A stretch of 63,973 nucleotides of DNA, counting the filler, from Vannella sp. (Eukaryota): NCBI GenBank assembly GCA_023345925.1. It is 9 parts of 9 records of this genome, joined end to end, with 100 filler letters (N's around TTAATTAATTAA, not from the genome) between each part and the next. Parts side by side here need not be neighbours in the genome. Positions count along the whole stretch, not along the records: positions 33,026 to 37,246 come from JAJQQN010000181.1; 8 more parts are not named here. One strand, written 5' to 3'. Under the pieces are notes generated by a model. The model ran no database searches. It was not told the DNA's origin and was given only the letters and a program-made list of their open reading frames with translations. This document shows positions 6,960 through 63,973 of the stretch, in pieces. The position numbers and the translations under genes were made by a program. Every line of letters begins with the position of its first letter. The stretch's first letter is position 1.

Positions 6960-7110
6960 TTGCTGGCAACAGCCAATCAGAATCGACATGGTAACTCTGC
7001 CTTCTGATTGGTCGGTTCCCCCGAAGCTCAGGACGCTAAAGAAGGTGGTTTTGGTGACTTTGGAATCAAAAGAGTTGGAAAGTGAGTAAGGAGATGGGTT
7101 GATTGGGTAT
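6960..7110. promoter_or_regulatory. Bidirectional promoter with CCAAT boxes
   Basis: GCCAATCAG (~6972), CTGATTGG (~7004) and TGATTGG (~7100) lie between the divergent SF3B1 and RCC1 genes. Confidence 0.55.
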
Positions 7111-7136
7111 TCTCCCTTGCGATCTGGTGGGTGGCG

Positions 7137-8127
7137 ATGCCCTTTGGCGACCACACTCTGCTCCTGTTAGAGGAAGGAAGCTTGGTGGCTTTTGGGGCCA
7201 ATGCGAAAGGACAACTCGGACTTGGACATAGGAACGATCGAAAGGAGGCAGCCGAGGTGCCTTGGGAAGGCCCGCGGGTGGTACAAGTGGACTGGGGCTG
7301 CTTTCACTCTCTTCTTCTCGATGAGGAGGGCGGTGTCTGGGAAACTGGTCTTTGCCGCTCTAGCTCTCCCTTAGTTCTCTTTCAGAGAGTTCCAGAGCTT
7401 CCAGTGATCACCTCTGTGGCTGCTGGCTGTTATCATAGCGCGGCCGTCGATGAAGAAGGTTCCCTTTGGTTGTGGACGTCAAAATCTAGTCTCTCATGGG
7501 CTTGTTCTACACCACAGCAAGTACAAAGTATCTCTGCACTCTATAAGGTGGCTTGTGGATACGACTTTCTCGTAGGAGAAGCTTTTGAAGGCCTCTGGGT
7601 GTTGGGGGATAATTCATTTGGGCAACTGGGCCTCGGCCACACTAATGACGTCCCCCAGCCTACTCTTTTGCATGGAACCTTTCATTCTGAAGGGCTGCTT
7701 CGCGGTGTGGCTGCATTCAACCACGGAATCCTACTTATTGACTCTCAAGGCGCTGCCTTCACTGCTGGGAGCAACACTTATGGACAATTAGGACGCTCTG
7801 GGGATGAAACTACGTTTCAAAAGATTGGCTCTCTCCCCTCATTGTTTATAGCTTCGTGTGGGAGCCATCATACTCTGGCTCTGGATGAGATGCACCGCGT
7901 CTGGTCTTGGGGACTGAATTGGCATGGAAGATTGGGCAATAGAGGATCGTTGAGCCATCCCTCACTTTTGGATTGCTCAGAAGAGGTGGAAGCAGTTCTT
8001 GCTGGAGGGAAACATTCTCTGGTGTTCCAGAGTGACAGAAGACTTCTTGTCTTTGGAGCGAATGATTCGGGGCAACTGGGCCTCTCAAAAACCAACCAAC
8101 TTCGTCCTACATATTCCACATTGGCGC
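7137..8127 (+). CDS. RCC1-repeat beta-propeller protein (3' truncated by contig end)
   Basis: Repeated FGxNxxGQLGLG and ACGxxHxL motifs; intronless. Confidence 0.93.
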
Positions 8128-8227
8128 NNNNNNNNNNNNNNNNNNNNNNNNNNNNNNNNNNNNNNNNNNNNTTAATTAATTAANNNNNNNNNNNNNNNNN
8201 NNNNNNNNNNNNNNNNNNNNNNNNNNN
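8128..8227. other. Artificial contig linker
   Basis: N44-TTAATTAATTAA-N44 (stops in all six frames). Identical linkers occur at 15954-16053, 25185-25284, 32926-33025, 37247-37346, 41715-41814, 55450-55549 and 61974-62073. Confidence 0.99.
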
Positions 8228-14017: not shown

Positions 14018-15685
14018 ATGTACTCCTTCCACGACCCTTTCCCTTTGCTGTCGACTCTGGAACTCTTACTTGGAGGCAACCGTCCCTTCCAGTCCCCAGA
14101 CCAGCTCAATGAGCCATTACCCCCTCCAAGCGTAAGCTCTCCAGTCCCCACCAATAGACAGTGTCCGAAGTCCCTCCTTCATCACAAACCTCCCTTTGCT
14201 CAGTCGACTGGCCCTTTGTCGGAAGTGCAGACGTCAGTACAGAGCGGGTCTGATGAGAGGGGAATTAGAGAGGGAAGGGGGCAAAAGGGGGCAAAAGGGG
14301 CATTTCTTTCGAGCATGTTCGGTGGGATACCTCCTCCTTCCTCCCCATTCTGCAACTGTCACCATGCTGTAAGGACGTCTGTTCAGGAAGGGAAGTTGAG
14401 TGGGGAGAACGGTCCCCTCTGGCCCCATCAAGCGGAAGCCTTGCAGGCGATCTACCGCGACTTTTTTGAACGTCCAGACGAGACAGGGGAGCAGAAGTTC
14501 TCGTTGGTTGTGATGCCTACTGGGACTGGCAAGTCTTTGGTCATTGTACTAGCACCCTACATGCTCAACTGTGCCAAGGTTCTGGTGATTACGCCTTCCG
14601 TAGTCATCTCCAAACAACTTCTCTTCGACTTCCAGGGAGGCCTGACCCCCACAGGAGAGGCAACTCACCCTCTACTCACTCGCATATGCCCCCAAACATG
14701 GCCTGTGAACACAGTAGAACGGTATCAGCCACAAGGCTTCCCAGTCAACTGCGCCAGCGATCTTCTGGGCATCCCCGTTCAGCAGCCTCAACTGGTGGTA
14801 GTCAACGCCCAGAAGCTAGGAGAGACCTCCCACATAGCCATCTCCCAGATCCCCCCGATCTTCGACCTCATCATCGTCGACGAGGCCCACCACTTCCCTG
14901 CCGTGACTTGGCGCAACATTGTTGCACACTTTCAGAACGCCAAGGTGCTCTTGATGACGGCTACCCCGTACAACAAGACTGCTTGCAAGCTTACCCAGTC
15001 GAAGACAGCTTACATCCTTGACCGTCAACCTCCTGCCTACCAGTTTAGTCGAGTGGAGGCCATGAGACAGAGGATCATCCGGCCCATCTCTCCTATCTAT
15101 GTGGAAGAGAGAGTCTTGTTGGGAGGCCCAGAGCCAGAATCAGAGAGAGATGGAGAGATTCGAGCGGTTATCTTGCGCACCCTCGAGGAGTTGGATGAAC
15201 ACGACCAAATAGACTCCTCCAGAGGCCACCAAGCGATGGTTATCACCCACACAAAGGAGGAAGCAGTCAGGATTGCGGAAATTGCCAACGCTCATGGAGT
15301 ATCTGAACTTCCTGAAGATCTGATTGCCGCTGTCTTCTTGGATGGCACTCCCGGCCAGGTCCTCAAAGACTTCTCTAAACCCGATGGTCAGAAACATAGA
15401 GGAACCCCGCGCATTCTGATAGTCTGTGCCCGGCTTCTGGAGGGATACGACAACAAGAACATCTCTGTTTGTGTGATTCTCAGGAACATCTCTCGGCAGA
15501 GCGCCGTCCTCTTCGCTCAATTCATCGGCCGTTGTCTTCGCCGTCACCAGGACGATCTCGATATAGTGGAAGCAAAGATGATTACCCACATCGTCCACAA
15601 ACAGCAATCCAACTTCGAAGCCTTCTGCGACGAAGAAGCCATGGGCCTTCCTGAAGATGAGCCGGAGGAATTCCACGGTTATTAA
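14018..15685 (+). CDS. Superfamily-2 DExH helicase, ResIII/Irc3-like, intronless
   Basis: LWPHQAEAL (Q motif), MPTGTGKS, IIVDEAHH, MTATP, LLEGYD and QFIGRCLR. The start codon is uncertain. Confidence 0.9.
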   Translation: MYSFHDPFPLLSTLELLLGGNRPFQSPDQLNEPLPPPSVSSPVPTNRQCPKSLLHHKPPFAQSTGPLSEVQTSVQSGSDERGIREGRGQKGAKGAFLSSMFGGIPPPSSPFCNCHHAVRTSVQEGKLSGENGPLWPHQAEALQAIYRDFFERPDETGEQKFSLVVMPTGTGKSLVIVLAPYMLNCAKVLVITPSVVISKQLLFDFQGGLTPTGEATHPLLTRICPQTWPVNTVERYQPQGFPVNCASDLLGIPVQQPQLVVVNAQKLGETSHIAISQIPPIFDLIIVDEAHHFPAVTWRNIVAHFQNAKVLLMTATPYNKTACKLTQSKTAYILDRQPPAYQFSRVEAMRQRIIRPISPIYVEERVLLGGPEPESERDGEIRAVILRTLEELDEHDQIDSSRGHQAMVITHTKEEAVRIAEIANAHGVSELPEDLIAAVFLDGTPGQVLKDFSKPDGQKHRGTPRILIVCARLLEGYDNKNISVCVILRNISRQSAVLFAQFIGRCLRRHQDDLDIVEAKMITHIVHKQQSNFEAFCDEEAMGLPEDEPEEFHGY

Positions 15686-25696: not shown

Positions 25697-28087
25697 CTAA
25701 GAAGGCGCGTCAAGGTCTCGGAATGAGCTACCTTGGATCAAACTCGCTGCTCTTTTCCTCTTTCCTATAAGAGACTTTGGCTCTTCTCTACCGGAAGACT
25801 GCTCAAGCTGCTGGGAGGTGAGATGTGGAAACTCGCATGCGCTTCCTTTCGGGCAGGTTCCTTTCAAAAAGAGGAAACAGTGTTTTTTTGTTCGGACGCG
25901 TTTGGACATTTCGGACGACTTTCGCTTCGGTTTGCCTTTCACTTTTGGTTCTGGAGCTACTGGGAATGTATAAGGTATCCTGGAGGAATCACTTGGCCAC
26001 TGGGTGAGAAGGAAAGGAAGACGACGAGTGTCAGTTTCTCCTGAATTCTCGTGATATCGATACAAGTCATAAGAGCATGTGGAAGGAGCAGGTGGCTGGG
26101 GATCTACTGCAGCAACTGTCTTTTCGGTTTCTTCTTCAACAATAACTAGCTCATCATCAGAGTCTGAAGGGCTATCCGGTTCTGTTGGAGCAAGAGGAGC
26201 TTTGTCTATTGCTTGTAAAATTTGGACAGTGGGCTCTCCTACTCGATGTGAGAGGAGATAAGAGCCTTCTTGTAGTTGCGTGAGATGCTTAAGCATAGAA
26301 TATACAGTTCGCATAGCAGAGCTAGGATTGAACAGAGAGACACTTGGTGCGTTTAGAATTTTGGAGTAGTCCATTTCATCAACCCGACAGACTGACAAGG
26401 GAGGAAGTGGGTCACACCTGGATGCTAGTAGAAGCGACCCTGGTCTCAATAAACTGTAGATCCATCGACGTGCTGTCTCAGAAGGGCAAGTTAACTCCCA
26501 CTCCTGCTGCTGCATTCGGTATTCCATCTTTGTCTGGCACCCTACGAAGCGGTCTCCTTGAGGGACCTTAGTCACACCGAAAAGTGAACATCTCACTACA
26601 AGCTCCAAATCCCCCAGTTGCCAGAGGTTGTACGTGACGTTTCGGCCTGCTTTAAGTAGTCGGCGTTCCAAAGGTGCTCCGGAGCCTGGCGGAAAAGAAA
26701 ACCCGCCTTTTTCGTCACACGCTCGGTGAATGATTGCTTTTCGGAAGAACTTCTCATTCTTCTCTCTCGGTGTGATGGAGAGTTTCATGAGTGGCTTATC
26801 CAGAATCACTATTCGTTTGGACCCTTCCATTGTAACTACAATTGGGATCTCCCACTGGTCTGCTTCGGCTGGATTGCTGAGATTAGCAAGCATTTGGAAT
26901 GTGCTGGAGGTCAGGGCGAGATGAAAATTGCTCTGAGAAATGAGCTGCTTCAGCATCTCATCCGAGGACAGCTCCGGAAGGACACCCTTTTGAACTGGAG
27001 GCTCTTCTTGTATAATCAAGGGCAGAGAAGGCATTGATAATCGAGGAACAGTCCCAAGCTGCAAAAGAGTGCCCTTGTGCGTAAACAGGGGTATCTCACC
27101 AACCAGGGGGCGCTGAAAAGTACGATCACTGAGAAGATTATAATAACGAGGATATCGCTTGATGCGAGTTCGGCTCAACCCAATGAGCTTCTTCCAAAAG
27201 GACTCCACAGGGGGATCAATATGCATGTAGTGAAACCGGTGTTGCTGTGCTTCTTTCTCGAACCAGTCACGGTAATCAGCATTCTCCTGCTTTACTGTCT
27301 CTTCCATGGTGCGGAAAAGAGCCTCTTCCATCCGATTAAGACGGCGTTTGGCATTAGGATCGGTGAGTGCTTGGTCCTCTTGGAATTTGCGCCTGAATTC
27401 AAGGAAGAGAGTGTGTTGACTACCAGTAAGAAGGGATTTGCGAGGGTATCTGACTCGTAAGTAATCAATCGGGATCGTTTTCCGAGGGGCTTTGGTTTCC
27501 CCGAAAGGAATTCCGGCAGATTGGGTTTCCAGAGATTCGGAAGAGTCACTATCTTCATCAGATGATACCCCTATACCATTTCCAGATGGAATAGCGAATG
27601 GAATGGAAGCCAAGGTCTCGTATTCAATAGGGAAGGAAGTAGCAGTGGGCTGGGGCGATGGGTTCGGAGCTTCCTCCTCCTCTTCACTGGACGATGAGGA
27701 TTCACTTGAATCGAAATCAGAAGATTCTGGTGTTCTATCAATACTCTCAGCTACTGGGATAGAAGCTTCAGGAATGGCAGGTGCCTGCTCCACTAATCGA
27801 GCAGGATTTGGTGGAGTAGCACTCGGAAGAGGCGCTTGGAGATGACAGTTCTTCATCCAAAGCTTAGAGAATGCTACTTCATGCTGGTTTGTGCGATCCC
27901 ACACAGATCGAGTGAGAAAAGGACTGCCAACCGATCCGAGCCCCACTTCCAACGCGCCCTCTCTCGGCATGGCAAGAGGGAGAGGCCCAAAGAAGACACG
28001 CGCAGGCAAAGGCAAAACTGGAAGCCGACCATCAACAACCTCCACCTCAGGACAAAGCTCTTCCAACAGAGCCCGAACCTCCTCCAT
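25697..28087 (-). CDS. NARG2/ICE2-like protein with C-terminal CCCH zinc finger
   Basis: NVTYNLWQLGDLELVVRC and KMEY..E..SETARRW resemble NARG2_C. CFLFLKGTCPKGSACEFPH is a CCCH finger. Confidence 0.7.
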   Translation of the reverse strand: MEEVRALLEELCPEVEVVDGRLPVLPLPARVFFGPLPLAMPREGALEVGLGSVGSPFLTRSVWDRTNQHEVAFSKLWMKNCHLQAPLPSATPPNPARLVEQAPAIPEASIPVAESIDRTPESSDFDSSESSSSSEEEEEAPNPSPQPTATSFPIEYETLASIPFAIPSGNGIGVSSDEDSDSSESLETQSAGIPFGETKAPRKTIPIDYLRVRYPRKSLLTGSQHTLFLEFRRKFQEDQALTDPNAKRRLNRMEEALFRTMEETVKQENADYRDWFEKEAQQHRFHYMHIDPPVESFWKKLIGLSRTRIKRYPRYYNLLSDRTFQRPLVGEIPLFTHKGTLLQLGTVPRLSMPSLPLIIQEEPPVQKGVLPELSSDEMLKQLISQSNFHLALTSSTFQMLANLSNPAEADQWEIPIVVTMEGSKRIVILDKPLMKLSITPREKNEKFFRKAIIHRACDEKGGFSFPPGSGAPLERRLLKAGRNVTYNLWQLGDLELVVRCSLFGVTKVPQGDRFVGCQTKMEYRMQQQEWELTCPSETARRWIYSLLRPGSLLLASRCDPLPPLSVCRVDEMDYSKILNAPSVSLFNPSSAMRTVYSMLKHLTQLQEGSYLLSHRVGEPTVQILQAIDKAPLAPTEPDSPSDSDDELVIVEEETEKTVAAVDPQPPAPSTCSYDLYRYHENSGETDTRRLPFLLTQWPSDSSRIPYTFPVAPEPKVKGKPKRKSSEMSKRVRTKKHCFLFLKGTCPKGSACEFPHLTSQQLEQSSGREEPKSLIGKRKRAASLIQGSSFRDLDAPS

Positions 28088-28300
28088 CTGCCCGCCAAAG
28101 GGAAATGCACTTTATTCGCCCCATTCCCATCAAACTCGATTTCCCATTCAAAAGCAAATTTTCATTATTTTGTGTAATCACGAGGGCGGTTGGTCGAGGT
28201 CCGCTCTGGTTGGCTGGACGAGCGTAATGAAGGAAGCAGTTGGCCTTCTGGGCTAGATATAAGGCGAGAGAGGAGGTGGCGAGTCATTCTTTCGGTGTCT

Positions 28301-29931: not shown

Positions 29932-30131
29932 GATTCAATTGCAAGAAAAACCACAAATACAAAAATTTGCCTTGCGACTTTTCCGATTTTTTTCCGAATC
30001 TGTGGACAACATTGATGATTGGTGGTTGTAACCAATCATCAAACACGAGATCAGGTCTTGAAGTGTCCTCCAGGCAATCCAGCGAGTTGCGTTGATTAGC
30101 CTAGGGGAAGTGACAGGCTTCATTTCCCCTT

Positions 30132-31169
30132 ATGCCCTTGGGAAGCTTCACGCTCCTCCTCTCGCACGAAGGGGGCCTTTACGCTTTTGGAGACAACAGC
30201 AAGGGCCAACTCGGTCTCGGTCACAAGAAATCTCAATGCCAGCCGGCGCTGGTCCCTTGGAATGGCCCGCAGCCGGTTCAGGTGGACTGGGGATGCGACC
30301 ACTCCCTTGTTCTTGATATGATGGGTGGTGTTTGGGATGCCGGTTGCTCTCGGCCCCGCGATTGCCGCTCCAGCTTCCATCAGGTTCCAGGACTACCTCC
30401 GATCACTTTGGTGGTCGCTGGCACCTATTACAGCGCCGCACTCGACACCAACGGCTGCCTTTGGGTGTGGACCGACCAAGATATCTGGATCTCTTGGGCA
30501 AGCAGTGCTCCCAAACGAGTGGAAGGTGTTCCTCCACTCATCAAGGCGGCTTGCGGAGAACAATTTATCGTGGCAGAGGCCGAGGAAGGCCTCTGGATCT
30601 TGAGACCCAATCCATGTGGACACCAAACCAACAACGTTCTTGAATCGCGCCTTGTTCAGGTGGAAGGCCGTGCCGAAGGACCTCTTCGATGCCTCGCTGC
30701 GTTTCGCAACGGAGTGATTCTCATTGACTCGCAAGGAGCCGTCTTCTCCTGCCCACTGGGGTGCTCTTCTGGAGAGGATTCAAGGTTTAGGCGAATGAGC
30801 AATATCCCTGCCATGATCCAGGCCTCCTGCGGACTAGATCATATTCTCTACCTGGATGAGAAGGGCAGTGTCTGGTCCTGGGGATGTGGTGGATATGGGC
30901 AATTGGGAAGGAGCCGTGGTTCCACTGATCTCGAACAACATCCGCATCCAGTACCTTCTTTAGAAGGAATAAGCGCCCTAGTTGCGGGAGGATTCCATTC
31001 TTTGGTATTCCCAGCGGAAGGTGGCCTGCTGGTCTTCGGATGGAACAGCTCTGGTCAACTCGGACTCAACCACAGGTACCAGAAAATCACTCCCACAGCT
31101 TGCCTCGTCCAGCCCGCTCTCCCCCATTCTTTCGATCGCAGCAGAATGAAGAGTGCCCGCTTCACTTAG
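30132..31169 (+). CDS. RCC1-repeat protein
   Basis: RCC1 motifs; clear paralogue of 7137-8127. Confidence 0.93.
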   Translation: MPLGSFTLLLSHEGGLYAFGDNSKGQLGLGHKKSQCQPALVPWNGPQPVQVDWGCDHSLVLDMMGGVWDAGCSRPRDCRSSFHQVPGLPPITLVVAGTYYSAALDTNGCLWVWTDQDIWISWASSAPKRVEGVPPLIKAACGEQFIVAEAEEGLWILRPNPCGHQTNNVLESRLVQVEGRAEGPLRCLAAFRNGVILIDSQGAVFSCPLGCSSGEDSRFRRMSNIPAMIQASCGLDHILYLDEKGSVWSWGCGGYGQLGRSRGSTDLEQHPHPVPSLEGISALVAGGFHSLVFPAEGGLLVFGWNSSGQLGLNHRYQKITPTACLVQPALPHSFDRSRMKSARFT

Positions 31170-33025: not shown

Positions 33026-35150
33026 GAAGGTTCCTCATGTGGTTCTCTCTCCCCTCTCTCGGCCGTTGGTGGGTGCTGTGGGCAAGGCCATGGTGGATTT
33101 TAAGCCTCCTGAATCAAGTGGCCAGTTTCTCGCGTTTTCTAAAGGCAGCTGCGTCACCCTGCTCTCAAGACCACCCGATGGATGGAACATTGGCTGCTCT
33201 CAAGACCACTATGGCCTGTTTCCAGAGGGCTTGGTCGAATTTGATGATGCCTACACATACGAAGACCTTGCTAAGGTAAGGGCTCCCATCTCCTAACGAG
33301 GAACAGAGAGAGCCCACTAATCTCCCTTGTTAGCGTCTTTCTGACCGGTCCGATGGCATGCCCTGGGCCGCAGCCCTTTTGATGATGATAGAAAGTAGTT
33401 CATCTTCCTCTGTTCTGGCAGAAGAGATCCTCTGGCCGTTAATCCAAGCACTTCGCCACTTCGAGGGAGCATTCTTCGACTTTATTGACCAGATTCTCCA
33501 AAGCGAGGTAGCAGAGTGTCCAGAAGAGAGTGTCCTGTTCCGTAAGGACTCTTTTACAAGCAAAATATTCGGTCGCTACTTCCGGGAGACGGCTGGAGAG
33601 TGGATTAGAGAGTTAATTTGCCCGTTAATTGCCTCTGCCACGGAAGAAGGCTTCTCTTTGGAGTTGGACCACTTTGCAGAAACGTGTGAGGAGAAGAGGG
33701 CTGAAAACCAAGCAGCCCTCCTTGGCCTTAGCGAGGACTTGCTCCGAAGAATTCAGGATAGTATTGACAGTGCTCCCCCAGGAGTGCGATACTACTTTTG
33801 GTTGATACGCACTCGAGTTATTGAGAGGTTTCCTGGTGCCTCTTTAAAGTCTGTGGGGGGCTTCCTCTTCCTGCGAGTGATTTGCCCGATTCTGGCTTCT
33901 GGATCTTACCATTGCCTGGGGAGCAGTGAAATTGTCACATCATCTCCTATGGGCCGAAGGAACTTGATTCTAACATCAAAGATCCTTCAGAACCTGGCCA
34001 ACGAGGTTCAGTTTGGAAAGAAAGAGTCTTTTATGATTCCTCTCAATTCATTAATTATCCCCCACAGGAAGCTCTGCTCCGAGATTCTCACACAACTCTC
34101 TTCATGGGAGGGTTCTCCGCCTATGGAAGAGAATGCCCGCCTTCATGAGATGGAGTTGAAGCAGCTAATGAAGTACATACACAGTTGGATGTGCAAGGAC
34201 GAGTACCGAGAGCAACTATTCCAACTCTTCCAACTTGATAGGATTTCCAACGAGACCATCGAAGACTTTCTGCGAGGAATCCTTCTAATCGGACCTCCTC
34301 TGCCTGATTCTATTCTGTTTCCTCCTGGGTATTTGGATTCCGCTACTCGCGAAGATACCTCGACTCCCAAGCCTCAAAAAGTGAAAAGAAACAAAGAAAA
34401 AGAACACCAGGAACGCCAAGAGCGCAAGAAGTTGCGAAAGGAACAAAAAGATCGAAAGGAAAAGAGGGAAGCTGAAAAGAGAGCCGCTCTTCCCTCAGGG
34501 AAACTCCAGATTGGTTCTTATCTTCATTGTCGTGTTGCAGACGCCCCTCACAAGGTATCCAAATCGCGCTACTTTGCGTTGTACTCTGGTTCGAGCGCCA
34601 TTTTCAAATTTGTTTCTTTTGACGATGCCCCTGGAAACCCTGTTGTGTCCATCCCTCTCTCTCCTTGTACCACTTCGGAGTTACTTCCTCATGGAGACAA
34701 AGGAGAGGCTTGGGAGTTCCTCATACGACCTAGCGAGGATGAAAAAGCGCTTTTATTCTCTAGCGACGATGAGGGCCTCGTCCGAAAGTGGCTCATGTTA
34801 TTGGACAATAGAACGCAAAGCCCAGGCGACTTACAGCAGAGCGAGCAGCTCCTAATCTCTCTCCATGAGAAAGCTGACAGGCTTCGTGAGGAGATTGCAG
34901 ATACCAAACAGCGTTTGAAGTTGTCTTATGACAACCCCGACTCAGCAGATTCCAAACGCTTGGAAGAGTTGATGATTGCCCTCCAATACCTCACTGCGTC
35001 CATCCAAATGATGGGTGAATAACCCATCCGTTGGAGAGGTACTCGTGACACCGAATTAAAGAGCCATTGGAAGAGCTACAAGATGAGTTTGTCCTCCATT
35101 GTTCATGGAGGAGATCTGTTCGTTCCGGCAGTTCCTTATCCTGGATTTGA
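33026..35150 (+). CDS. SH3-RasGAP-PH protein, 5' partial
   Basis: SH3 (AMVDF..LAFSKG..GW..GLFP), RasGAP (LFRKDS, GGFLFLRVICP, KILQNLAN) and a PH-like C-terminus. A probable last exon ends at TGA 35148-35150. Confidence 0.88.
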
Positions 35151-35254
35151 TTCGCTATCGCAAACTGGTACAACGAAAAGGTTAAGTGTCGTCACAACGT
35201 CCTCAATCTTCCTTTTTTAGGGGGAGCTCCAATGTCGCTCCGTTACTTCGAATT

Positions 35255-35332
35255 CTTTGGGTGCAGGAGGCCCAGGTTCGATTCCTGGCGTTTCCCTTCG
35301 TGGGGAAATGTAGTTCAGTGGGAGGATTCCTG
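35255..35332 (+). tRNA. Circularly permuted tRNA-Pro(UGG): 3' half 35255-35296, 5' half 35304-35332
   Basis: Rejoining GGAAATGTAGTTCAGTGGGAGGATTCCTG + CTTTGGGTGCAGGAGGCCCAGGTTCGATTCCTGGCGTTTCCC gives a full cloverleaf. Acceptor GGAAATG/CGTTTCC, D stem GTTC/GGAT, anticodon stem CCTGC/GCAGG with loop TTTGGGT, T stem CCAGG/CCTGG with loop TTCGATT, discriminator C73. Confidence 0.9.
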
Positions 35333-35807
35333 AATATTTGAGCTTCTCACCTCATCTCAACCGAGGTCGGACGGGAGTCCGAATGAGAAGTTTGTGCGGA
35401 TGACTCCGTCTCCCCTTTTACAAGGAGACAAGTAGTGCCAAGGTAGTGAGAACGTCTGACTTATCATGTAACCCTCCCTAAATGAAGGATGTCTGTTGCA
35501 AACGGCAACACGACCAACTTTGGCCTTTTCGAGGAGGTTCGTAATCTCTGTTGACCAGAAGGTCAGGGCTCACGGCTATTGCAGTCACCTGTTGCACGCT
35601 GCCACCATTAGCTTCGATACAAAGAGAAAGGTCACTCCATGACGGCCAGAGAACCAGTTTCCTCCTTTTGCCCGCTTGGGGAGTCCCTCTCAACAGAAGA
35701 GGCAAAGAATGGTCCAGAAGGGCTGCAAACTGAATGCAAAGGGTGATAAGGGAATGGAGCTAATGAATGATCATTTATAAACGGGAAGGAGCCGAAGGGG
35801 GCGGAAG

Positions 35808-37151
35808 ATGGAGCAGAGGGCAGAAGCGGATCTGGGCTGTAGTTCGTTGATCTGCCAGCGCTGTGAGAAGTCGATCCGAGTTTCGGAGGAGATAGATACC
35901 AATGAAGAGCTCTGGGAGGCTCAAGGAGGGCGCAGCATCCTTCGTACCGATTCAAGCAAGGAGGGGCGGTTAGTTGCCCTTTTTGAGTACTTTTCTTCTG
36001 TCTCTGTGGCTGGATGTGATGAACATCCACTATGTGAAGACTGTGCTGGCTCTGTGTCCTTTTCTCAGGCTCAGGAACTGGCGGAACGCGCGCACGAGAT
36101 CGCCCACTTCCAAGAAACCTTACAAATGCTCTCCTCCCCCATCTCTGACGAGAATGGAGGGGTTCAAACGATAGAAGAAGCCATACAATCTCTCCAAGCG
36201 ATCGAAAGAGACTTGCAAGCGCAGATAGAAGCATGCAATCACCAATTGGAGGTTTCAGTCGATACCCTCACACATCAGCACTTCCAGTCACTGCGCATAG
36301 AGACCATGGTCAGCTCCTTTGACCACCTATGCTGTGATGTAGAGGGCCATCTGGTCCAATTCAGGGACGAGTTGCAAAGAGATTCCGTCGGGCGGTGTCT
36401 CATTCATTCGGTCTCAGAGGCTTGGAAGGACAGCAAACAGTATCTCCCAGGAGCTTTTGAGATAACCTTTGAAGGCTTCTTCGGCTGTATCAATCGGCTC
36501 CGCCTTGGGACATGCACCGACATTCCCGTAAGTCCATTCTTTTTGGGCCATTCTGATTCTCATTCGTTTCAACACCAGGTGGATTGGCAGGAGCAAAGTG
36601 CCGCTTGGGGATACACAGTTTGTCTGCTCCATCATTTGGCCAAGCGCCAGCAGTTTGAATTCAAACGGTAAGTCACTTGCATGTCGATTCGTTCCTATTT
36701 TAATCAATCCATTGCCTCCAGATTCCGGCTGATTCCTCGCGGGAGCTTCTCTGCTATAGAAGATACAAGAGAGAAGAGAGCAATGGAGTTGTTTGGCACG
36801 CAGGAGATTACTTTTGATACCATCTTTTGGTTTGGGCGATTCAACGAGGCACAAGAAGGCTTCCTTGACTGTCTCCAGCAATTCGTCCTCTTTGTTCGGC
36901 GCTTAGATCGCAATCTCAGCTTTCCCCATTTGTGAGTCGCATTGAGTTGAGACAAACTCAATGGCAAACTGACTTACTGACTTACTGACTTACTGACTTG
37001 AACCAGAATCCGAGGGAACAGAATCGGAAAATATAGTATTCTCTACAACCGACTGGGCACGAATGTAGAATGGTGTCACGCCCTCCAATTAGTCCTTCTC
37101 ACACTTAATATTCTCCAAGAATGGGAGGTCCACTATGACCCCTACTCATAA
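35808..37151 (+). CDS. ATG6: Beclin-1/Atg6/Vps30 homolog (multi-exon)
   Basis: CQRC, HPLCEDC, FEI..FGCINRLRLG, VDWQEQSAAWG, LIPRGSFS, FLDCLQQF and EWCHALQ motifs. Confidence 0.9.
36968..36999 (+). repeat. (ACTGACTT)x4 inside intron 36932-37006
   Basis: Read directly from the sequence. Confidence 0.95.
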
Positions 37152-41891: not shown

Positions 41892-44776
41892 CTACCACCA
41901 ATCGTCGTCGTCTTCGTGGTCGCTGTGCTCGTCATCGCTGTCACTGCATTCAATTGCAGCTCGCCGGGCGATGAGCATCATATGCAAATTGAATCCACCG
42001 GGAGGCTCGCTTTGAGCCCTCTGGAGAGCTGTTTTCCTCTGTTCAGGGACGACCTTTCGAAGGAATGTTCCTTTTTGGATCTGTTCGAACAAGTCTCCGC
42101 CCGACAGCGACGTAGTGACCACTCTTTTAGGGACCTCCGCCTTGACTACAGGTGGTTTCTGCACTGGAGCAACAACTGGAGGCGGTGGAGGAGCGGTACC
42201 ATCAGCTGGGGGAGGTGTTTTCTCCACCAACGGCGGGGCAATGATGGGCTCCTCCTTTACAAGAGGAGAGGGAACCACTTCAGCTGGGATTTGAGGCTCC
42301 TCTAGAACAGGGGCCACCTCTTCAATTGGAGTCTCTTGAAGCAATGGCTCTTCAACAGCGGGCTCCTCAGTTGCGGGTTCCTCCACGAGAGGAGATTCTT
42401 CCTCTATTTCCGATATTTGGAAAGCAGCGATGGTTGCTTTTTCTTCCCCAGCAGGCTGGTACAAGGACACCTCGAACTCGCCTTCTTGCTTGGGATAGAA
42501 AGTGCTCGGGACGAGTAAATAAGGAATCTCGCTTGCTTCAACAATAACACCCAAAGCCACTATCCCAAGAGTGAGATACTCCAAGCCTTCCCATGAATCT
42601 GCTTACCATCCTCAGCAGGCTCATAATGGGAGCTCCCAATCAAGTCATTCTCTCCCGTGAGAAGAGGTTCTAATTGCTCGTCCGCTTTGCACAGGGAGAA
42701 TCCGATGGGCTTAATAGCGGCGACGTTTCCTGAGGATACCTTTTGGGTCAGCACAAGAACAGCACAAGTCTTTTGTGTCACAAGAATGGCAACCCGCGGG
42801 TTGTTCCACCAAGACCCGTTATTTAAGCATCCCCCAGCGCTGTCTCCACTCCAGGCACCGGAAATGGTTCGAACAGAAGGCTCTGGAACTGGACTTAGCG
42901 AGACAACTCCCTTTTGGTTGCTGAACACGCTAATAGTAAACTTGCTCTCAACTCCAGGAGCGAAAGTGCAGGGAATAATGTTGTAAACTCGTCCTGCATC
43001 CACCTGGAAAGGACAATACGCCTCAAAACTCTTCCTGAATGGTGACTTCTTCAGAACAGTGTCATCAGTGATAATCAGGGTTTTGCAGATGCCTGCGCTC
43101 TCCTCAGTGGGTGGAGCGGTGATGTAAAAGCCAATGCTGTGCTTGGTGTCTTCCTTGGAGTTTGGTAATTGAAGAAGAACGATCAATTTCGAGCTTTTTT
43201 CTGCTCGGAATTGGAATTGGCTGTTGTTTCGCCACGTTTTACCGTGGTTAAGGCAACCGCCTGCAGTAGCAGCATCCCATTCACCAGAAATACTCTCCTG
43301 GTGGAAAGGCTCGTACTCTTCCATGTCCGGAAGTGACTCTCCGTCTGGTACTGAAACGGACAAAGTAAACTCAGCGAGCAGGTTTGGGAAATAAGTGCAG
43401 GGCATTACCATAACAGAAAAGATTCCTGGTGTCCTTTCTTGTAACATGGCGGCTGGCACCTTCAAGTCAATCGCTTCAACCTTTGAGCAAACACTGGACT
43501 CAAGCAAGTCCGTGGATTGTGCCAATAGCCGCCTCTTTCCATTATCCTTGAAAACAAAGATACCAATTGGGTGAATCTCTGCACCGCTTGGTGTCTCTTG
43601 CACCAAACGGAGGTGAATGTCACAACGAGAGTTGGAATGGACGGCATATTGTGGATTGTTTCGCCAAGTAGAGAAACTAGGACATCCCCCAGCACTGATT
43701 CCATCCCACGAGCTGTTGATGGTGATCTCCTCTGTATCTGTGAGCTCCCGAACCTTCACCTCACAGGTGGAACGGTGGTAAAGAGCAAGCTCAAAGGCCG
43801 CCTCATTGTCTGCATGGAATGTACAAGGCACTACTATGTAATATGATCTGGAAGATAGCTGGCTCAAGCTAAGGGCGCACTCCTGACCATTCCGGAAGGT
43901 CGCCTTCTGAACAAGATCTTCGGGAATCATCTTAGTTGTTGGAAGGGAGTCAACTTGGAAGACGTAGAGGCCCAAGGCATCGAATTTCTCCTTCTCTGAT
44001 TGTGTCAGAAGCAGTTGCAAGTCAAAGCGTGCGGACGATTGTCCTTGAACGAGGAACTGGGGGTTATAAACCCACGAAGGGAAGTTCTTACACCCCCCTG
44101 CGCTTCTTCCTCTCCACTCAGAAGACACGGAGATCCTCTTCAGCTCATCGGCAGCGGTCAGAGGACGAATGAAAGCTGCGTTACTGTTCTCCACTGAAAC
44201 GGTAAAATGGAGTTGTTTGCCGGGGTAGAAAGTACAAGGGAGTATCACGTAACCGTCAGGTGTAGCAGGAAGCTTGGCTGAGCATGAGACCGAATCGTTC
44301 TTGGAGAAAGCCGAACGAGCCACCGCTTCAGGAGAGGAGACGAGCTCTTGATAGCCCTGGCCAGGAAACACGTAAAACCCAACGCCTTCGTAATCTTCCT
44401 CGTCTCCAGGAAGCTGGGTGAGTGTGATAGTGACCTCGCACTCCTCCTCTACTTTTAAGAGGATCTGCGGGTTCTGACGCCACGTTGGGTTGTTCATGCA
44501 CCCTCCTGACTTAGTCTCAGACCACTTTGTCTTTACTTCTCTACTCCAATCTCCTTCTTTCTCCACTACTGACGCCTCCTTCTCGGCCTTTGCAGCTAAA
44601 AGAGAGCGAACACGAGTTTGCGATTCCTTCACCACTCGAACCGCCTGGGATAGGTCCTCCATCGCAGGACCCACAGAATCAGTACAATCCGCGTCCTCCA
44701 GCAGCTTAGCTATCGCCTCCTGCTCTGCCAAGCTCTCCCGAAGCTCCTGAACCAAACGCCCGCCGAGCCGCTCCAT
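41892..44776 (-). CDS. Protein with five calpain domain-III repeats, a Pro-rich linker and a C-terminal WH2-C-A module
   Basis: Five GGC..W..N(P/S)(Q/R)..PCTF-type repeats. Intron 42560-42606 joins the ORFs in frame. The protein ends GGDLFEQIQKGTFLRKV..LIARRAAIECSDSDDEHSDHEDDDDWW. Confidence 0.88.
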
Positions 44777-44843
44777 GAAGAAATGGCCAAATTATATTGC
44801 ACAGGGCAATGGTCTACAATAGTTATTATTCATGAATGGTGAA

Positions 44844-54882: not shown

Positions 54883-55449
54883 TCATACCAAGAGCCCCTT
54901 CCAAGCAGGACCACAAAGGAAGTGGGCATTCTTCTTTGAGCTCCTGCTGGTGAATGAATGAGGGAGAGCGGGCTGGACAGGGCAAAGCGTGGGAGTGACC
55001 CAAAAGGAATCGGTCGCGTGGTTGAGTCCGAGTTCTCCATCAAAGTTGGGTCCGAAGACCAGCAGGCCGCCTTCCTGTGGGAACGCCAATGAATGAAATC
55101 CACCAGCGAGCAGGGCGCTCATTCCTTTCAACGAGGGCACCAGAGCGGCTTTGGGCTGATTGGAAGTGTTCCCCATCCCCAATTGCCCTTCTTCACCCCT
55201 TCCCCAGGTCCAGATGCCGCCGCTCTCGTCCAGGGCGAGAGTGTGACCCCATCCGCACGAGACGCCAAGCATGGGAGGGATGTTCTTGATTCGCTGAAGC
55301 TTCGTTTCATCACCAAAAGAGCGCCCCAGTTCGCCAAAGGAGTTGTATCCAGAAGAGAAGACGCCTCCTTGCGAGTCGACGATCATCACACCTTGTGAGA
55401 GGGCAGAGAGGCATCGAAGAGGTCCTTCAGAGCGCTCTTCCACTTGGAC
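54883..55449 (-). CDS. RCC1-repeat protein, 5' partial
   Basis: Third paralogue: EGPLRCL..DSQGGVFS..GGFHSLAFP..QPALPHSF. Confidence 0.9.
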   Translation of the reverse strand, partial: VQVEERSEGPLRCLSALSQGVMIVDSQGGVFSSGYNSFGELGRSFGDETKLQRIKNIPPMLGVSCGWGHTLALDESGGIWTWGRGEEGQLGMGNTSNQPKAALVPSLKGMSALLAGGFHSLAFPQEGGLLVFGPNFDGELGLNHATDSFWVTPTLCPVQPALPHSFTSRSSKKNAHFLCGPAWKGLLV

Positions 55450-55549
55450 NNNNNNNNNNNNNNNNNNNNNNNNNNNNNNNNNNNNNNNNNNNNTTAATTA
55501 ATTAANNNNNNNNNNNNNNNNNNNNNNNNNNNNNNNNNNNNNNNNNNNN

Positions 55550-63858: not shown

Positions 63859-63973
63859 AGAGGAACCGAAATTCCCTTGAAAAATTCCTTATTACACTAT
63901 GAGTGGGGTGAGGCCACGGTAATCTTTAGTAAAAGGCGAAAGATTAATTCGTTTACTGAGCTCACCCCAGTGC
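63859..63973 (-). ncRNA. U5: U5 spliceosomal snRNA (5' end at the window edge)
   Basis: The minus strand reads TGGGGTGAG..AATCTTTCGCCTTTTACTAAAGATT-ACCGTGG..CTCACCCCA, with invariant loop 1 GCCUUUUAC. An Sm-like site AATTTTTC and a 3' hairpin (GGGAAT-TTCG-GTTCCT) follow. Confidence 0.95.

Follow-up and report, generated by a model that had tools for sequence, protein, structure and literature searches.

Swapped halves of a tRNA-Pro(UGG) gene in an amoebozoan lie within a predicted vault- or Y-type RNA and resemble the tRNA mimic of bacterial YrlA

In the stretch of DNA analysed here (the window, 63,973 nt in total) the two halves of a tRNA-Pro(UGG) lie in reversed order between a RasGAP gene and an Atg6/Beclin-like frame. 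They are flanked by sequences that are predicted to pair with each other and to form the handle of a larger RNA unit. The features of the locus are:

33334..35022, plus strand: RasGAP gene, upstream neighbour (Pfam PF00616, E 8e-23).
35213..35218, plus strand: T6 run, closely upstream of where the unit is predicted to begin.
35220..35419, plus strand: whole predicted RNA unit of about 200 nt, likely a Pol III product, with ends predicted to pair (from folding; boundaries chosen after inspection).
35220..35226, plus strand: 5' strand of the predicted terminal stem, partner 35410-35416 (pair probabilities 0.93-1.0; inverted repeat I2).
35227..35233, plus strand: 5' side of the predicted internal loop, the position of the Ro60 motif in YrlA, here a weak match (neither GNCGAAN0-1G nor GGUCCGA occurs exactly; a small PWM gives 0.7 bit).
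35234..35242, plus strand: 5' strand of the predicted inner stem, 4 bp, bulged C35238 and 4 bp, partner 35397-35404 (pair probabilities 0.93-0.96; layout of the Rfam Vault consensus).
35243..35249, plus strand: UUACUUC directly after the inner stem, including the YUAY of YrlA at 35243-35246 (Rfam Deinococcus Y RNA consensus).
35255..35296, plus strand: tRNA-Pro(UGG) positions 31-73 (42 nt), comprising the anticodon loop with UGG at 35258-35260, the T arm with the B box, the 3' strand of the acceptor stem and C73 (from rejoining and the junction scan).
35297..35303, plus strand: 7-nt spacer by which the acceptor stem is closed as a hairpin (acceptor pair probabilities 0.92-1.0); 6 nt in the second haplotype.
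35304..35332, plus strand: tRNA positions 1-30 (29 nt, without position 17) with acceptor 5' strand, D arm (A box) and 5' strand of the anticodon stem.
35340..35393, plus strand: predicted extra three-way hairpin domain within the 3' arm, with GGGA as the tetraloop of one hairpin (pair probabilities mostly 0.87-0.99).
35397..35415, plus strand: 3' side of the predicted handle, 8 paired nt, 5-nt loop and 6 paired nt (same lengths as the 3' side of the Rfam Vault consensus).
35416..35419, plus strand: T4, predicted Pol III terminator or oligo-U tail (first run of at least four T after the start of the unit).
35781..36671, plus strand: Atg6/Beclin-like frame, downstream neighbour (Pfam PF04111, E 6.5e-11).

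The swapped-halves feature is real. A preliminary description of this locus had placed tRNA-Pro(UGG) positions 31-73 before positions 1-30 with a 7-nt spacer in between, and this order, the spacer and the coordinates were all found to be correct. Exchanging the halves by coordinates, a check proposed at that time, gives a full tRNA-Pro(tgg) cloverleaf in ARAGORN, and the score of 124.4 at junction 30/31, which no other of the 114 junction/length combinations reaches (runner-up 119.0), falls within the range of the natural tRNA-Pro genes in the fetched loci (114.9-124.7, n = 7). A junction at 37/38 or at other shifts was rejected because of lower scores or an invalid loop. The 24 nt over the 30/31 junction are identical in the linear tRNA-Pro(UGG) genes of locus L001 and of 19 of the 21 viral loci, and the proline identity of the module holds throughout, as anticodon, G37, G1-C72 and C73 all agree. 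The swap test was passed by one of 17 candidates in the window compared to none of 134 in 15 Markov-resampled windows, both strands included. The expectation that standard scanners would miss the feature was borne out, since neither ARAGORN nor Rfam at gathering threshold calls a tRNA in the native window, and the absence of an intact 5' half upstream and of a 3' half downstream of 35255-35332 was confirmed. A decayed 5' half in the leader was considered (10 of 16 matches near the expected register) and is suggestive at most, with a local alignment P of ~0.24. The D arm of the module carries A9, C13 and G22, whereas all 24 natural tRNA-Pro matches from eukaryotes or viruses, a set without amoebozoan tRNA-Pro, have G9, U13 and U22. 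Most likely, the module goes back to tandem tRNA-Pro(UGG) genes of the host, whose inner halves gave rise to it or overwrote it. The 64 kb of the window (1-63973) contain no ordinary tRNA gene. Among the viral loci L009-L029, many of them labelled GVMAG, a near-identical eukaryote-type tRNA-Pro(UGG) is present in 19 of 21, and L016 has only the 3' half of a tRNA-Pro, near the contig end and attachment-site-like.

The assembled order is borne out by contigs from two runs, X1 and X3, with no joints listed. One X1 contig covers 34452-35557 with zero differences, X1 possibly being the window's own source, and an X3 contig, from the same study and another haplotype, covers 35261-35514 with the same order of halves and a 1-nt deletion at 35302 in the acceptor loop. 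The X3 haplotype has no listed substitution in 35261-35432 and four substitutions plus an indel (an insertion) in 35433-35514; this clustering of differences outside the unit has a post hoc P of ~0.04, with two further differences lacking a location. The low coverage (contig depth ~4-5) and the origin of all contigs with this locus from one study could be taken to suggest an assembly artefact, but two contigs from two runs and different haplotypes agree in the order without joints, and a misjoin would not produce the handle, so that an artefact is of negligible probability. At 80% likeness no other contig was found on the tRNA stretch; as contigs cannot prove absence, this result is silent on an ordinary tRNA-Pro elsewhere. 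No RNA run was among those listed with the locus.

The host is likely a vannellid amoeba, as judged from its protein sequences. In a maximum-likelihood tree of SF3B1, a placement also suggested earlier, the window protein and two others have Vannella as their nearest neighbour (100/99), followed by Clydonella (98/91), i.e., in the Amoebozoa and outside the lineages known for permuted tRNAs; this single-gene tree is thinly sampled, with the window protein and 29 of at least 120 matches, and most plant sequences and Dactylopodida are absent. The closest relatives among the matches listed are at 80-93% for RPS2 and 86-87% for SF3B1.

Folding of 35219-35419 gives a z of -2.64, with one of 200 shuffles as good, and if the flanks are shuffled round the fixed tRNA core, 10 of 300 are as good as the native sequence; the fold of the extra 3' domain (35338-35420) has a z of -1.96. 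The ends of the unit are predicted to pair into a terminal stem, an internal loop of 7 x 5 and a helix of 4 bp, a bulged C and 4 bp, followed by T4 (pair probabilities 0.93-1.0). In the free minimum-energy fold the D and anticodon stems are lost, and the cloverleaf costs 7.6 kcal/mol. A descriptor of the handle matches a single T4 run of the window's 324, the run that encloses this module, and five of 7271 T4 runs in Markov sequence (chance 0.0007 per run), figures to be read with the 5' loop range of the descriptor having been widened, and the unit ends set, when the fold of the window was already known. YTACTTC is present in 10 of 14 TROVE-adjacent units (17 units found upstream of TROVE genes, of which three tandem-tRNA-like ones were dropped) and occurs 17 times in ~126,000 window positions on both strands. 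The 8-mer at the motif site ranks first, in a three-way tie, of 125,954 window positions by a small and related training set with five distinct block pairs, and with a 24-nt PWM of the whole 5' handle the site ranks 424th in the window. AAUG is found 8 nt before UUACUUC, compared to 8 nt in L045 and 9-10 nt in 125 of 134 YrlA-type matches, and the distance from UUACUUC to the T stem is 29 nt in the window versus 22-26 nt in bacteria. The sole A-box match, at 35311, is located downstream of the B box at 35276, and 35100-35460 contains zero TATA-like matches and the T4 at 35416. A scan for bacterial promoters and terminators was uninformative. Since no orthologue was found, the structure of the unit is taken from folding, without covariation. 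With respect to the preliminary description, the permuted tRNA halves stand, and the surrounding unit with its vault/Y-type handle had been missed.

Metazoan vault RNAs may carry the same UUACUUC motif directly after the inner stem. The Rfam Vault consensus is laid out as 6 bp, a loop, 4 bp, a 1-nt bulge and 4 bp, then 8 paired nt, 5 nt, 6 paired nt and UUUU, and the unit is predicted to share this arrangement with a 5' loop of 7 nt instead of 5. The unit thus resembles vault RNAs (RF00006) in handle geometry and oligo-U end; furthermore, its length is near that of Leishmania vtRNA, with trypanosomatid vtRNAs described in the available text as reaching up to ~190 nt (PMC9326685), and vault proteins have been reported from the host group (PMC7916137). 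It differs from vault RNAs in the handle sequence and in the A and B boxes, which are reversed inside a complete permuted tRNA module, so that a vault-type A box upstream of the B box is not present. The Rfam Vault model (RF00006) has no match to the unit at E <= 10, the 150-nt insert being larger than the 54-nt middle of the model, and the accessible parts of the vault reviews contain no description of a permuted tRNA module in vault RNAs. Similar to Deinococcus radiodurans Yrn1 (RF01053), the unit has predicted paired ends with a bulged helix and UUACUUC at the stem end in the consensus; in Yrn1, in contrast, the tRNA-like arms have another orientation as far as described (PMC4201824), and its GGUCCGA is matched at five of seven positions in the unit. 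The oligo-U end is shared with metazoan Y RNAs (PMC4030889, in part), which are stated to show no apparent tRNA-like domain (PMC4201824). For Amoebozoa, MVP matches and vPARP were reported in the consulted sections of a review that also assigns the TROVE ring only to Ro60 and TEP1 (PMC7916137). The long protist vault RNA of trypanosomatids has a suggested Y-like role (PMC9326685, available text). Vault proteins do occur in Amoebozoa, and the portions available of the reviews of the field name no amoebozoan vault or Y RNA sequence.

tRNA-mimicking Y RNAs have been described from bacteria and phages. The unit is like bacterial YrlA (RF02553; PMC4201824; 10.1101/312249, the papers in part) in the order of modules, the opening of the anticodon stem onto a long handle and the YUAY after the inner stem. 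It also has U8-A9, a step given as conserved in YrlA in the accessible text of the structure paper (10.1101/312249), and a 7-bp acceptor stem as in M. smegmatis YrlA. YUAY is likewise given as conserved (Chen et al. 2014, PMC4201824, in part). The unit shares with YrlA the order of T arm, closed acceptor stem and D arm, the opening at the anticodon stem, the YUAY before the variable/anticodon hairpin and a predicted long stem joining the ends; the full anticodon loop is kept on the 5' side as in many of the YrlA-type RNAs sampled. The inner stem appears in plain minimum-energy folds of only four of 14 bacterial units, and base 73, a C in the window, is free to vary in bacterial YrlAs. Unlike YrlA, the unit is a eukaryotic nuclear locus with a module modelled on eukaryotic tRNA-Pro, an extra 54-nt domain, a T4 end, a score below the family cut-off, no Ro60 gene in the window and GNCGAAN0-1G unmatched. 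At the expected place near the 5' end this Ro60 motif has two mismatches and 0.7 bit. No Ro60 or TROVE frame was detected among 1590 six-frame window segments (best E 0.87), so that the unit does not have a Ro60 gene within ~4 kb on its strand as YrlA does, a linkage that would be unexpected in a eukaryote. The Rfam YrlA model (RF02553) gives 19.4 bits for the unit versus a cut-off of 69. With our own YrlA model, built from 40 YrlA-type sequences, the unit is the top match of the window (35.3 bits, E 4e-8) and lies inside the range of tandem-tRNA decoys, since bacterial decoy loci have best matches of 29.5-53.5 bits and L001 reaches 34; held-out YrlAs score 88.7-120.9 bits, far above the unit.

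A pattern scan of GTDB gave 134 YrlA-type matches in 122 loci, and three of the matches overlap native tRNAs. Rejoining gives at least 100 for all 134 and at least 124.4 for 26, scores that, like that of the window, are the best of many junctions and are also reached by tandem tRNA pairs. A perfect rejoining is not diagnostic because these 26 bacterial matches rejoin as well or better, and since both YrlA-type RNAs and tandem tRNA pairs pass the swap test, the test cannot separate a tRNA gene from a mimic. Of the 64 YrlA-type matches scoring at least 120, 61 break after position 27, 28 or 29, with scattered anticodons. For two YrlAs of actinobacteria that lie 250-350 nt upstream of TROVE genes, the rejoined scores are 124.4 and 119.6, with breaks at 30/31 and 31/32 in the same numbering. 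Judged from sequence, the break position of the module in the 5' strand of the anticodon stem agrees with YrlA. The TROVE neighbour in L078 was confirmed as Ro60. Loci L087-L098, upstream of actinobacterial TROVE genes, have one or two YrlA-type units each, with a UUACUUC-type handle that resembles Deinococcus Yrn1 more closely than the Rfam YrlA consensus; the units that were scored reach 31-44 bits, below the Rfam cut-off. Many YrlA-type RNAs of L099-L220 have a complete 7-nt anticodon loop in a short 5'-side hairpin (the 'V' stem-loop in the part of Chen 2014 available), and are thereby near-complete permuted tRNAs with ~28 anticodons among the 64 high scorers, ~920 such stretches being estimated in the collection; the accessible text of the structure paper describes YrlA as being without an anticodon loop (10.1101/312249). 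In an even sample of 151 actinobacterial genomes no YrlA was above cut-off, and the top matches were mostly tandem tRNAs. Two unpublished genomes, G053 and G151, contribute to raw tallies only, and none of the claims depends on them. The Ro60 search in protein representatives gave 5053 unnamed matches and was of no use for locating an amoebozoan Ro60.

Homologues of the module were searched with two patterns. The permuted-Pro pattern had zero matches in viral contigs, and its four metagenome and four GTDB contig matches all turned out to be an ordinary tRNA-Pro next to another tRNA; the D-arm pattern had zero viral matches and one chance bacterial match. A locus search based on RPS2 yielded 12 GTDB loci and none in viral contigs. 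The four longest were dismissed as relatives of the host, being other eukaryotes with RPS2 51-75% identical and no other shared gene, and the permuted-Pro pattern had no match in either genome tried. L038 and L039 (OZ219972.1, CBDBZY010000007.1) are bacterial-labelled MAGs with 400-500 kb contigs and an intron-containing eukaryotic RPS2, i.e., eukaryotic contamination.

Rather than a scrambled tRNA gene, the unit is likely an RNA that mimics tRNA, of a type known to date from bacteria. We consider it probable that it encodes a Pol III-made RNA that binds a TROVE protein (TEP1 or Ro60) and carries a YrlA-type tRNA mimic. According to this model, Pol III would transcribe an RNA of ~200 nt from about G35220 to T4, the handle of paired ends would bind the TROVE ring, with TEP1 and Ro60 about equally likely, and the L-shaped tRNA module may serve as effector, tethering the TROVE protein to tRNA-recognising or RNA-decay factors. 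Such tethering by the tRNA elbow was proposed for bacterial YrlA in the portion available of the structure paper (10.1101/312249). The tRNA shape would thus be displayed as a mimic and not be spliced into a tRNA. The half order, the 30/31 break, the closed acceptor stem, UUACUUC and T4 are read from the sequence; the handle and the 3' domain come from folding. The likely Y/vault reading is supported by the 30/31 break, the handle geometry, UUACUUC, the lack of a workable BHB motif, the D-arm bases, the haplotype pattern and the amoebozoan MVP/vPARP. The Ro60 motif left unmatched, the missed Rfam thresholds, the model score in the decoy range, the lack of a homologue and the agreement of the proline elements count against it. 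As the Rfam thresholds and the Ro60 motif are missed and the structure is obtained by folding alone, we use YrlA/vault-like as a working designation and do not file the unit in RF02553 or RF00006. In the mostly open-access literature covered we found no prior report of a eukaryotic YrlA-type RNA.

The preliminary description assumed maturation into a tRNA via a circular intermediate, which is not the most likely reading, since the 30/31 junction is unlike those of the catalogued permuted tRNA genes and no workable BHB motif is formed. Maturation of permuted tRNAs is tied to BHB motifs in the accessible parts of PMC3978253. That the locus is a genuine circularly permuted gene for tRNA-Pro(UGG), whose junction at 30/31 would be of a new type, is unlikely; the route such a gene would take comprises cutting by the splicing endonuclease at a relaxed bulge-helix-loop, ligation to a circle and acceptor-loop opening through RNase P and tRNase Z. 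As in the permuted genes of Cyanidioschyzon, prasinophytes, the Bigelowiella nucleomorph and Thermofilum (PMC3978253) and of Auxenochlorella (PMC12633428), both as described in the sections available, the 3' half comes first, the intervening sequence is short, with its 7 nt inside the known range, a complete tRNA results on rejoining and a T stretch follows downstream. The rejoined score is in the range of natural tRNAs, all proline identity elements agree and CCA codons are common in the window genes (98 of 414 Pro codons). However, those permuted genes have BHB-type motifs and known junctions, and the window has no upstream TATA-like box. The 34 permuted genes in Table 1 of Soma 2014 (PMC3978253) have their junctions at 15/16, 20/21, 37/38, 50/51 and 59/60, zero of them for proline and zero from amoebae, and 30/31 is absent from all 34. 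This join is a real ligation site in the archaeal split tRNA-Lys(CUU) of Staphylothermus and Nanoarchaeum, which differs in that its halves come from two loci and are joined by trans-splicing, through a canonical hBHBh' and 13 bp of perfect pairing (Chan et al. 2011, PMC3218864, available part). At the junction in the window neither a BHB nor a relaxed BHB was obtained, a failure that is not absolute since some organisms tolerate 'no H' motifs. It is possible to draw a relaxed motif with three of four central pairs and a 14-bp leader/trailer stem from trailer +2, but it has a 13-nt one-sided loop on the leader side as well as the incomplete central helix (3/4 bp), and its fold is at -29.3 compared to -45.4 kcal/mol for the free fold (16 worse) with a pair probability of ~0. 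The leader/trailer stem is weak when compared with window pairs (2.6% at 40/20 nt, 34% at 40/40 nt) and is gone once the fold extends to T4. Moreover, most eukaryotic endonucleases cut only at 37/38, where a join gives no valid tRNA here, YrlAs rejoin equally well, and the vault-type handle and UUACUUC would be left unexplained. Eukaryotic permuted tRNAs are confined to algae and nucleomorphs according to the accessible text of a 2026 review (PMC13578239) and PMC12633428, and no earlier report of an amoebozoan permuted tRNA gene was found in the mostly open-access literature covered. If this reading were true, it would be the first amoebozoan permuted tRNA gene found reported, with a new junction type and the need for an unusual endonuclease.

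A dual use, in which a Y/vault-type RNA would have its tRNA module also cut, CCA-added, proline-charged or ligated at 30/31 and thereby feed or mimic the proline tRNA pool, has a small probability. It would fit the full 7-bp acceptor stem, the feature that allows the RNase P cut of M. smegmatis YrlA, and the agreement of the proline elements across acceptor and anticodon, yet there is no splice signal, and a source tRNA-Pro can have passed this agreement on without any selection. In addition, one bacterial YrlA-type match, among ~28 anticodons, is also Pro(UGG), which shows that proline identity can be incidental. Still further down in probability we place a relic, left by a tandem tRNA-Pro duplication and not expressed, whose flanks would be structured by chance. 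The resemblance of the leader to the 5' half (10/16 positions, near the expected register) and the lack of a homologue speak for a relic; as a local alignment, the resemblance of the leader falls short of significance (P ~0.24), the inner halves are intact and mutually paired though unlike other tRNA-Pro acceptor stems, the handle and the motif are each rare by chance, and the haplotype differences spare the unit except for the acceptor loop.

That the YrlA/vault-like unit is the vault (or Y) RNA of this amoeba, and represents a widespread class of protist RNAs, overlooked so far, which bind TROVE proteins and retain the complete permuted tRNA module of YrlA type, is a tentative proposal to which we give somewhat less than even chances. 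If it were true, vault RNAs, Y RNAs and bacterial YrlA would form one family derived from a permuted tRNA on a shared handle, the module having been lost in animals. A vault-type handle, a Y-RNA motif and a YrlA-type module in a eukaryote would open the suspected shared ancestry of vault RNAs, Y RNAs and tRNAs to direct testing, and handle, UUACUUC and module together constitute a search descriptor for protist RNAs. For annotation, a perfect in-silico rejoining is no proof of a permuted tRNA gene.

The window genes are compact and intron-poor, with more than 3.3 kb of SF3B1 without an intron. A tandem calpain domain III repeat protein is encoded at 42560-44791 (minus strand), and the readable organism names among its 44 matches are amoebozoan. 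An intronless ResIII/DEAD-type helicase frame at 14018-15685 (plus strand; PF04851, E 1e-21) is possibly of prokaryotic or viral origin. Three dispersed paralogues, RCC1-repeat-like by eye, are located at 7086-8183 (plus), 30114-31169 (plus) and 54883-55497 (minus), two of them adjoining assembly gaps. A protein with a NARG2/ICE2 C-terminal domain and a CCCH finger is encoded at 25697-28111 (minus), which we take to be a subunit of the little elongation complex. A U5 snRNA gene (75.6 bits) at 63861-63973 (minus) is truncated by the end of the window.
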